A DNA stretch of 64,000 nucleotides from Clostridia bacterium (GCA_045631485.1 JAZQUU010000038.1:89856-153855); one strand, 5' to 3'. Counted from the stretch's first letter, positions 48,353-55,709 are shown. Notes: generated from the sequence alone by a model not told the origin. Program-made: numbers and translations.

Positions 48353-48365
48353 AAAATGAAAACGC

Positions 48366-48402
48366 AACAAAAAAATCGCAGTGAAATCCACTGCGATTTT
48401 TA
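48366..48402. terminator. bidirectional rho-independent terminator (thioesterase on the plus strand, RAYT/pepQ unit on the minus strand)
   Basis: aatcgcagtg (48374-48383) pairs with cactgcgatt (48389-48398), a perfect 10-bp stem. A-run before and T-run after. Confidence 0.75.
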
Positions 48403-48909
48403 TTATTTTTCGGCATTATAGAAACAATCCGATTCCCATTTTAATGGGTTAGTTTCGATATATTCCGCTATTTTTAAATAATCTTGTTCGTTACGGATAA
48501 TATGGTCATGGAATGACCGTTGCCACACATTTTCGCCACATTCTTTATTACAAAATCGCTTGAAAGTGCTGACAAAATTTGAAAGCAAAGATTTTGTAGG
48601 GACCGACGTCCTCGGCGGTCCGTTGTCGCTATCTTCGATTTGTATCAGCAGGTGAATATGATTTGGCATAATCACATATTTTGTAATTGATATATTATCA
48701 TAAAAATTGCACATAGACAAAAGATGTTTATTTGCTATTTCCCCGCGTGGATACAGTATGTTTTGCGGGGCGTCGAGGACGTCGCCCCCTACAATAATTT
48801 CAGACAAAATTTTACGTCTGTCCTTGGTGCAGATTGTCACAAAATATGCACCCGGGCGGGAATAATCATAATCTTTCAATCGGGTGGGTTTTCGGTTTGG
48901 AAATTCCAT
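48403..48909 (-). CDS. REP-associated tyrosine transposase-like (RAYT / IS200-like Y1 HUH) protein
   Basis: RLKDYDYSRPGAYFVTICTKDR, HUH motif VIMPNHIHLLIQ, C-terminal WQRSFHDHIIRNEQDYLKIAEYIETNPLKWE. The start lies 3 nt after the upstream stop. Confidence 0.75.
   Translation of the reverse strand: MEFPNRKPTRLKDYDYSRPGAYFVTICTKDRRKILSEIIVGGDVLDAPQNILYPRGEIANKHLLSMCNFYDNISITKYVIMPNHIHLLIQIEDSDNGPPRTSVPTKSLLSNFVSTFKRFCNKECGENVWQRSFHDHIIRNEQDYLKIAEYIETNPLKWESDCFYNAEK
48595..48621. repeat. REP-like hairpin embedded in the RAYT ORF (copy a)
   Basis: tgtagggaccgacgtcctcggcggtcc: stem ggaccg/cggtcc plus inner cg/cg. Encodes GPPRTSVPT on the coding strand. Confidence 0.7.
48767..48793. repeat. REP-like hairpin embedded in the RAYT ORF (copy b, inverted relative to copy a)
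   Basis: ggggcgtcgaggacgtcgccccctaca; its reverse complement tgtagggggcgacgtcctcgacgcccc aligns to copy a with compensatory stem changes. Encodes VGGDVLDAP. Confidence 0.7.
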
Positions 48910-55627: not shown

Positions 55628-55709
55628 TGTAGGGACAGATGCCCACATCTGTCCGCTCCATTCATTGTACAATTCAAAACACGGGACGGTGTGGGCACCG
55701 TCCCCTACA
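55628..55709. repeat. inverted pair of REP-like hairpins (BIME-like) between recD2 and groEL
   Basis: tgtagggacagatgcccacatctgtcc (55628-55654) and gggacggtgtgggcaccgtcccctaca (55683-55709). The reverse complement of the second aligns to the first with compensatory stem changes. Same tgtaggg head as the RAYT-embedded copies. Confidence 0.75.

Follow-up and report, generated by a model that had tools for sequence, protein, structure and literature searches.

A Clostridial RAYT gene with in-frame REP hairpins at two sites flanking its HUH motif

A GC-rich hairpin with GTAG at its foot is what defines the repetitive extragenic palindromes (REPs) recognized by REP-associated tyrosine transposases (RAYTs, or TnpA-REP; PMC3733652, PMC8266576). 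REPs can also lie in frame within the genes for these enzymes. Quentin, Siguier, Chandler, and Fichant (2018; BMC Genomics 19:475, PMC6006769) reported in-frame REPs in tnpA-REP genes of subclass 2.4, which equals Bertels group 4, is found mainly in Cyanobacteria and Bacteroidetes, and carries the motifs NH[IFV]H, WQ, and YIxNNP; they take the insertions to be peripheral and probably neutral. In-frame REPs are likewise known from unrelated genes, where they have been regarded as neutral (Di Nocera et al. 2013, PMC3733652). Here, we describe a RAYT gene in a 64,000-nucleotide (nt) stretch of DNA (the window; JAZQUU010000038.1:89856-153855) from a Clostridia bacterium genome of 1.85 Mb in 42 contigs (GCA_045631485.1, 95% complete). 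The gene carries two REP hairpins within its own reading frame, one on each side of the HUH motif. The initial annotation of this DNA implied novelty, which the report on subclass 2.4 does not support as stated: in-frame REPs in RAYT genes are already known, and the Clostridial case is a widespread variant rather than a new kind of element.

We read this locus as a RAYT gene that holds its genome's own REPs in frame in two surface loops, where they are kept as DNA hairpins and rewritten together with the extragenic REP pool, and we give this reading a probability of roughly 70%. It agrees with a proposal in the initial annotation, in-frame colonization of the gene by its own REPs, which fits the data presented below.

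Two REP hairpins inside a RAYT gene

The 168-codon open reading frame (ORF) at 48403-48909 on the minus strand is intact and contains the peptides quoted in the initial annotation. Its translation is normal, with no need to take CGG as a four-base codon; the CGG here specifies the R in the WQR motif of the family. Its product matches the Pfam family Y1_Tnp (PF01797) at 29.9 bits (cut-off 23) and scores 78.9 bits against the NCBIfam model REP_Tyr_transpos, just under the cut-off of 80. An AlphaFold2 model built on 32 homologs has a mean predicted local distance difference test (pLDDT) score of 76.6, and its top fold match in the PDB is 4ER8_A (E = 1.9e-7; template modeling [TM] score, 0.58-0.59; 23% identity), the E. 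coli RAYT bound to a REP hairpin. The HUH motif, H84-I85-H86 of MPNHIHLL (codons at 48652-48660, minus strand), sits on strand 84-91 of the model, and N83, H84, and H86 are invariant in a 32-sequence alignment. The same alignment shows Y150 and N154 to be invariant. Y150, the presumed catalytic tyrosine on the basis of this invariance and its motif, is encoded at 48460-48462 (minus strand) and lies in YIETNP on helix 141-153; Y-x-x-x-N-P is the signature of class 2 TnpA-REP (PMC6006769). From the Pfam match, the fold match, and the HUH and Y-x-x-x-N-P motifs, the ORF is predicted to encode a RAYT/TnpA-REP-type single-stranded DNA (ssDNA) endonuclease, in agreement with its earlier description as RAYT-like.

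A genome search identifies two RAYT copies, 57% identical, and one fragment, a low gene copy number. An IS200/IS605 identity was rejected: the hairpins are internal and lie on opposite strands, the genes are only 57% identical, and the NCBIfam model transpos_IS200 scores 20.1 bits versus 55. Separately, a weak match to a REP-associated transposase model (37 bits) at C28:31482-31751 (plus strand) has one in-frame TGA and may be a degraded or unrelated Y1 gene. An Rfam scan returned no family near its gathering score; the top match, RAGATH-30 (27.1 bits versus 59.5, E = 0.0075), lies within the 3' end of the ORF at 48416-48477 (minus strand) and is probably due to chance.

Pattern search and folding locate the two hairpins within the ORF. 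Copy b, upstream in gene orientation, occupies 48766-48793 on the minus strand (TGTAGGGGGCGACGTCCTCGACGCCCCG), has its GTAG head on the coding strand, and codes for V40-P48 (VGGDVLDAP). Copy a, downstream in gene orientation, occupies 48595-48622 on the plus strand (TGTAGGGACCGACGTCCTCGGCGGTCCG), has its GTAG head on the template strand, and codes for G97-T105 (GPPRTSVPT). The two peptides thus flank H84-I-H86, one per side. Both copies are as first described (48595-48621, plus strand; 48767-48793, minus strand), with one more conserved base each: a tail G at 48622 and at 48766 extends them to 28-nt units of the form YGTAGGG-hairpin-CCG. The pair is inverted, with heads outward, and the spacer of approximately 142 nt is coding and includes the HUH motif. 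Searched with a degenerate pattern for the hairpin pair, the window yields these two sites and no others, against an expectation of 0 from 100 shuffles. TGTAGGG occurs four times in the window, each time as a hairpin head. The two copies fold alike as ssDNA, into a stem of 6 bp followed by a 1x1 A/G mismatch, 2 more bp, and a loop of 4 nt, with energies of -9.9 kcal/mol (copy a) and -10.1 kcal/mol (copy b) and z scores of about -3. Their G+C content is 71 to 75%, compared with 34% for the rest of the ORF.

In the AlphaFold2 model, the copy b peptide supplies the turn that joins strands 36-39 and 49-52 of a beta-hairpin located between beta1 and helix A. The copy a peptide lies in the loop between the HUH strand (84-91) and the next helix (108-124), where pLDDT falls below 50 at residues 99 to 104. 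Model confidence is low at both hairpin-encoded peptides, both of which are in loops, and the two sites are likely places where insertions are tolerated.

To place these hairpins within the repeats of the genome, we used a strict census (GTAGGG followed by at least seven Watson-Crick pairs, with at most one mismatch). It counts 69 REP elements, compared with 2 in a reversed-sequence control, bearing out their earlier description as REP-like. The 69 elements sort into nine multicopy sequence classes. Four are in genes, two in the window gene and two in its paralog; the other 65 are extragenic, and their sequences are present in both orientations. There are 18 head-out doublets, 16 of them extragenic with spans of 50 to 99 nt and 2 in genes with spans of 197 to 198 nt, and many extragenic doublets combine two REP classes. 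The paralog, found by tblastn at C27:17605-18108 (57% amino acid identity), carries the second in-gene pair at the same two codon positions, and its hairpins belong to a different class (GGTGCGGCGATTTCGACGCACC). The 199-nt hairpin-pair unit has no other copy in the genome. Five candidates for in-frame REPs in other genes were rejected: all lie in long stop-to-stop frames upstream of the true start codons. Intragenic REPs in this genome are therefore confined to the two RAYT genes. GTAGGG is invariant in the 89 distinct homologous elements described below, and the two in-gene hairpins are true members of this genome's own family of GTAG-type REPs.

The window also contains an extragenic head-out REP doublet of a different class at 55628-55709 (units TGTAGGGACAGATGCCCACATCTGTCCG and TGTAGGGGACGGTGCCCACACCGTCCCG, folding at -9.5 and -11.7 kcal/mol). 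The commonest REP classes of the genome are GGGACGATGCCCACATCGTCCC and its relatives, with 21 copies, and also GGAACGGATTGATCCGTTCC and GGAATGCATTTATGCATTCC. No gene carries any of these classes in this 95%-complete assembly; they sit within RAYT homologs of other genomes (e.g., L033, L055, and L078).

The in-gene elements are maintained as DNA hairpins

The protein family is large, with more than 7,900 clusters at E < 1e-5. Among 300 evenly sampled Clostridia genomes, 61 (approximately 20%) have a homolog, representing 39 of 177 genera, and the distribution is patchy even inside a genus. We gathered 80 loci using peptide patterns that lie outside the hairpins; together with this genome's two genes, these gave a set of 79 genes with 43 to 69% protein identity to the window gene. 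The upstream site is filled in 76 of the 79 homologs and the downstream site likewise in 76. In 74 genes a GTAGGG hairpin is present at both sites, always head-out, which bears out the statement in the initial annotation that similar palindromic peptide pairs occur in homologs.

For analysis of the stems, elements keeping at least five of six outer pairs (145 of 159) were aligned without gaps as 89 distinct 28-mers. In this alignment, 90.6% of stem cells are paired, compared with 71.9% after shuffling. Changes on both sides of a pair are seen in seven of the nine pairs, in 153 cells versus 42 expected, a value that none of 500 shuffles reaches. Sliding the partner by one to three columns lowers pairing to 29 to 53%, and all four Watson-Crick pair types occur at three stem positions. 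The compensatory stem changes first noted between copies a and b thus hold across the 89 homologous elements.

The encoded peptides behave differently. Among the 74 genes there are 42 distinct peptides per site, and the peptides change class as matched pairs (e.g., VGDGVLDVP/GTSRTPSPT, VGDDAHIVP/GTMKASSPT, and VGEGLCALP/GGHGNPP). Translation of the downstream head uses at least two frames, giving P-T in some clades and P-L-Q in others. Since the stems covary, the peptides vary by class, and the downstream frame differs among clades, the constraint is on DNA rather than on peptide, and the elements are maintained as DNA hairpins. Similarly, in L081, which shares 82% DNA identity with the window gene, the downstream hairpin is identical and the upstream hairpin differs by a GC-to-CG swap that alters two residues. 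The initial annotation had allowed that homologs might lack palindromes at these positions, or might conserve the segments as amino acids without stem covariation; we find palindromes kept at both sites, with changing peptides and covarying stems.

Head-out REPs (GTAGGGAACGACCTATGTGTCGTTCCG, peptides VGNDLCVVP and ERHAGRSLQ) occupy both sites in a more distant Clostridial subfamily as well (L083:104-603 and L090:126-503; approximately 45% identity), which carries the insertion NEYIRNVKNGILKPFDKR. L083 is frameshifted, and L090 is without its N-terminal part.

Match to the genome's own REPs and rearrangement at the hairpin sites

The two hairpins of one gene differ from each other at a mean of 2.5 positions, compared with 8.4 between genes, and both copies are identical in 21 of 74 genes. 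This resemblance extends to REPs outside the gene. The genomes behind L062 and L014 (G001 and G010) hold many extragenic copies identical to the in-gene hairpin, loop included. Among 31 REPs from the 1.5-kb flanks of genes with in-gene REPs, 12 match the in-gene REP of their own locus with at most one mismatch, compared with 4.2% for other loci. The class of the in-gene REPs thus matches that of REPs elsewhere in the same genome.

REPs are concentrated within these genes rather than beside them. Their density in the genes is approximately 19 times that of the flanks, and 62 of 77 genes have no REP within 300 nt. Only two homologs without in-gene hairpins were seen, and both have REPs beside the gene. 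L071 (1213-2170) is bracketed by REP arrays, with four REPs ahead of the gene and three behind it, as in a classical REPtron. L063 (1302-1445) has a REP doublet 50 to 190 nt upstream; the loops in its protein keep their length, with head and pairing lost, and the genome behind it shows no REP excess (18 pattern matches versus 90 in the control).

The hairpin sites are also hotspots of gene rearrangement and truncation. In a sample of approximately 125 matches from 300 Clostridia genomes, 29 of 51 internal ends of partial matches fall within four residues of the two REP peptides, compared with 24% expected (binomial, 8e-7). The DNA of four other genomes (G196, G068, G131, and G037) shows N-terminal remnants that stop at the upstream REP. 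Other gene copies start there. In the window genome itself, a 117-nt copy, 96% identical, of the 5' end of the paralog (C11:21609-21725, minus strand) begins one base ahead of the ATG, breaks off within the upstream REP head at TGT|AGGG, and gives way to unrelated sequence. Tandem or extra REPs occur at the hairpin sites of L013, L039, L050, L052, L064, L070, and L073. Specifically, L039 (1501-2112) has three tandem downstream copies with a 42-nt period, L013 and L052 have a duplicated upstream REP, and in L064 a REP of another class is added beside the resident one. An additional inverted REP-like peptide, GHPGTGVPT, is present in the upstream loop of L031.

One homolog, L082 (172-504; G228:C58:54471-54806), has lost exactly the inter-hairpin stretch, approximately residues 47 to 105, HUH motif included. 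Its junction is a single double-foot hairpin (GTAGGGCAGGAGCAAGCCCTTGCTAC), and the frame remains open and would give a protein of approximately 110 amino acids without HUH. In the syntenic pair L034/L070 the central block is replaced, with its left edge at the upstream REP head and its right edge approximately 50 nt past the downstream REP. No other syntenic pair has its break precisely at a REP head, the breaks of L003/L027 and L001/L047 lying at other places. A change-point scan over all gene pairs for REPs as general breakpoints between alleles gave only 16 events, which could reflect stronger N- and C-terminal conservation, and this idea is kept as suggestive. Deletion or inversion junctions were also sought in the assembled contigs of four metagenome runs. 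Only short joints, with sides of 26 to 32 letters, turned up; the few that skip 142 to 143 nt have sides of 26 to 28 letters. They resemble REP doublets of other organisms and give no evidence either way. The metagenome contigs break at the hairpins, with summed depths in the thousands, because these repeats are common to many organisms.

In the syntenic pair L021/L072 the breaks fall at the two ends of the ORF: the flanks are 90 to 96% identical and enclose unrelated RAYT alleles from the ATG to approximately 40 nt past the stop. Similarly, homology between L081 (1501-2053) and the window (48360-48909) extends from exactly the ATG to approximately 44 nt past the stop, beyond a terminator-like hairpin at 48360-48399 that lies between the RAYT gene and the convergent upstream gene, within the stretch common to both loci. 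The stem of this hairpin shows compensatory changes between the window and L081, and L081 has neighbors that differ from the window's (an MgsA-like ATPase gene and a helix-turn-helix gene). In both comparisons the RAYT ORF behaves like a cassette.

Explanations and comparison with known systems

The preferred reading, in-frame REPs kept as DNA hairpins and rewritten with the extragenic pool, would work as follows. The in-gene copies would be substrates of the encoded enzyme or of hairpin-directed recombination or conversion, and would be repeatedly rewritten from, or together with, the extragenic REPs. With both sites in disordered loops at a distance from the catalytic core, such rewriting would be tolerated by the protein. 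A gene holding its own cognate REPs would take them along whenever the ORF moves: since what gene copies from different contexts share is the ORF with its terminator, the internal REPs alone travel with the gene. The arrangement may therefore persist even though it often breaks the gene. We put at about even odds the proposition that the enzyme, or hairpin-directed conversion, uses the in-gene copies as substrates and that these are rewritten in concert with the extragenic pool.

Several observations weigh against this reading. In the window genome itself, no extragenic copy is identical to either in-gene copy; since the nearest ones (class B or class F) differ by one compensated stem pair, recent copying or rewriting is not evident there. 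Selection on structure alone could keep perfect palindromes without copying. The alignment used for the pair counts had been filtered for outer pairing (145 of 159 elements kept), and shared ancestry inflates both the covariation and the concerted-evolution statistics, so that, because the sequences are related, the shuffling controls overstate significance. The clustering of match ends at REP sites may arise in part from local alignments stopping at variable peptides. Further, the strict census yields nine multicopy REP classes for two RAYT genes and one fragment, and one-to-one cognate pairing is not established.

The preferred reading could be taken further, and we do so tentatively, as a proposal that is more probably wrong than right. 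Clostridial RAYTs would be self-contained REPtrons, with working cognate hairpins at two in-frame sites that are overwritten by the enzyme's own cleavage and strand transfer or by conversion, and with a removable HUH core. Because the copies would be overwritten in step with the pool, gene and repeat would never be unlinked when the ORF moves. If so, the hairpin pair would equip the lineage with an inherent means of inactivating or exchanging the enzyme's catalytic and specificity part.

A different possibility, which we consider somewhat unlikely, is that the in-gene hairpins are a selected cis-acting device, held by purifying selection rather than passively rewritten. They might preserve the cognate REP as a protected master or seed copy, or serve for self-recognition, with the enzyme limiting its own expression or marking its gene there; an autoregulatory or self-recognition device had also been suggested in the initial annotation. 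Consistent with selection, both fixed sites are kept in 74 of 79 genes despite 43 to 69% protein identity, the GTAGGG head is invariant, and REPs of this genome are otherwise strictly extragenic. The adjoining REPs of the hairpin-less homologs L071 and L063 look as if the arrangements substitute for one another, and the shared unit of ORF plus terminator means that only internal REPs travel. Against selection, the sites often destroy the gene, which is a cost; the identity of loop bases between in-gene and extragenic copies indicates copying over independent selection; and only two REP-less homologs were seen.

It is improbable that the inverted pair delimits a deliberately excisable or invertible HUH cassette, a genetic off-switch for the transposase. 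The initial annotation had suggested an excisable segment, and one deletion product does exist: L082 lacks exactly the inter-hairpin stretch, with a single hairpin at the junction and an open frame. Nothing shows that this deletion was programmed, and it is one example among approximately 125 matches. The replaced block in L034/L070 shares its left edge with the upstream REP head but ends approximately 50 nt beyond the downstream REP. Neither the rest of the genome, with no other copy of the 199-nt unit, nor the contigs of the four metagenome runs, with short joints like those of foreign REP doublets, favors such a cassette.

Still less probable is a role for the hairpins in mRNA, such as ribosome pausing or transcript stability, unrelated to REP biology. 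Both hairpins would also fold as RNA, and REPs affect mRNA fate in other bacteria. However, the GTAG head and CCG tail, both conserved, are not part of the stem and belong to DNA recognition by RAYTs, and conservation is equal for the two copies even though the mRNA contains them as opposite strands. Extragenic copies have these sequences in both orientations, and no Rfam family scores above threshold.

Finally, the proposal that these are two ancient REP insertions, frozen relics surviving as tolerated peptide loops with no continuing constraint on DNA, accords with their position in surface loops of the model, with the neutrality ascribed to in-frame REPs of unrelated genes (PMC3733652), and with the interpretation of subclass 2.4 insertions by Quentin et al. 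(PMC6006769), but it is already contradicted in these sequences by covariation (90.6% pairing and four pair types at three stem positions, at 43 to 69% protein identity), by class switching (peptides that differ by class, and a paralog with another class at the same sites), by frame switching (a downstream copy read in different frames), and by L063, which shows what decay looks like in a genome without REP excess: loop length kept, head and hairpin lost.

The long-term matching of REPs with domesticated transposases, and the spread of the pair, are open questions of the REP/RAYT field. In the present case, a gene includes its own predicted substrate, at sites that are both conserved and recombinogenic, and its internal copies follow the repeats of the genome. 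It offers an abundant system for testing coevolution, self-targeting, and modular exchange of an ssDNA enzyme. For annotation, thousands of gut "transposase" entries contain unusual peptides rich in Gly, Pro, and Arg, and these are hairpin repeats that have been translated.

Among described systems, REPtrons provide the best fold match, the E. coli TnpA-REP YafM (4ER8), and, with the group 3 genes of Stenotrophomonas and Marinomonas, share the GTAG foot. They also share the ratio of few genes to many REPs and a cognate relation of gene to REP class (Ton-Hoang 2012; Messing 2012; Corneloup 2021, PMC8266576). In REPtrons, the REPs or bacterial interspersed mosaic elements (BIMEs) flank the gene and are extragenic, unlike here. 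REPtron enzymes cut at CT or CA beside the hairpin, on the REP strand only. REPINs (Bertels and Rainey 2011, PMC3116915) have an inverted, head-out REP pair as their unit, as do the 16 extragenic doublets of this genome. Unlike in REPINs, the spacer of the in-gene pair is coding and approximately 142 nt long rather than a few tens of nucleotides, and the arms differ in their stems. Because the genome has no second copy of the unit, the in-gene pair is not a replicating REPIN. The intragenic REPs and RPE-like elements described by Di Nocera et al. (PMC3733652) are likewise palindromic repeats translated in frame as short loop peptides. Those elements are sporadic, lineage specific, and spread over many genes, whereas the Clostridial ones occur in RAYT genes only, at fixed sites, and family-wide.

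The closest of the described systems is subclass 2.4. Like its members, the window protein is a Y1 HUH enzyme with NHIH, W129-Q130, and a YIxxNP tyrosine motif, and by these motifs (NHIH, WQ, and YIETNP) it is close to that subclass; it appears to represent a large Clostridial subfamily with motifs closest to subclass 2.4. Both have GTAG-type REPs with G-C pairs at the stem base inside a gene whose frame is intact, one site in the loop that joins the HUH strand (beta3) to helix C (copy a, residues 97 to 105), and a relative with a double-foot hairpin as a deletion product. In subclass 2.4, by contrast, both the length and the sequence of the insertion region are variable, and REPs are found beside the gene as well. 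Here, the hosts are Clostridia, there are two fixed sites, and one of them lies upstream of HUH between beta1 and helix A, a site unreported for subclass 2.4 in PMC6006769; the tyrosine motif, YIETNP, has T where the consensus YIxNNP has N. The accessible part of the supplements of that paper makes no mention of Clostridia or Firmicutes, and a search of control genomes with the NCBIfam model for subclass 2.4 genes returned no loci from other phyla. In the literature searched, we found no description of the two-site arrangement, the upstream site, the covariation, the same-genome match, or the rearrangement products. What appears to be new, relative to subclass 2.4 and the other systems, is thus the second fixed site upstream of HUH and the near-universal two-site arrangement in Clostridia, together with the quantified covariation and class switching, the match of in-gene to same-genome REPs that points to exchange with the extragenic pool, and the rearrangement products at the hairpin sites.

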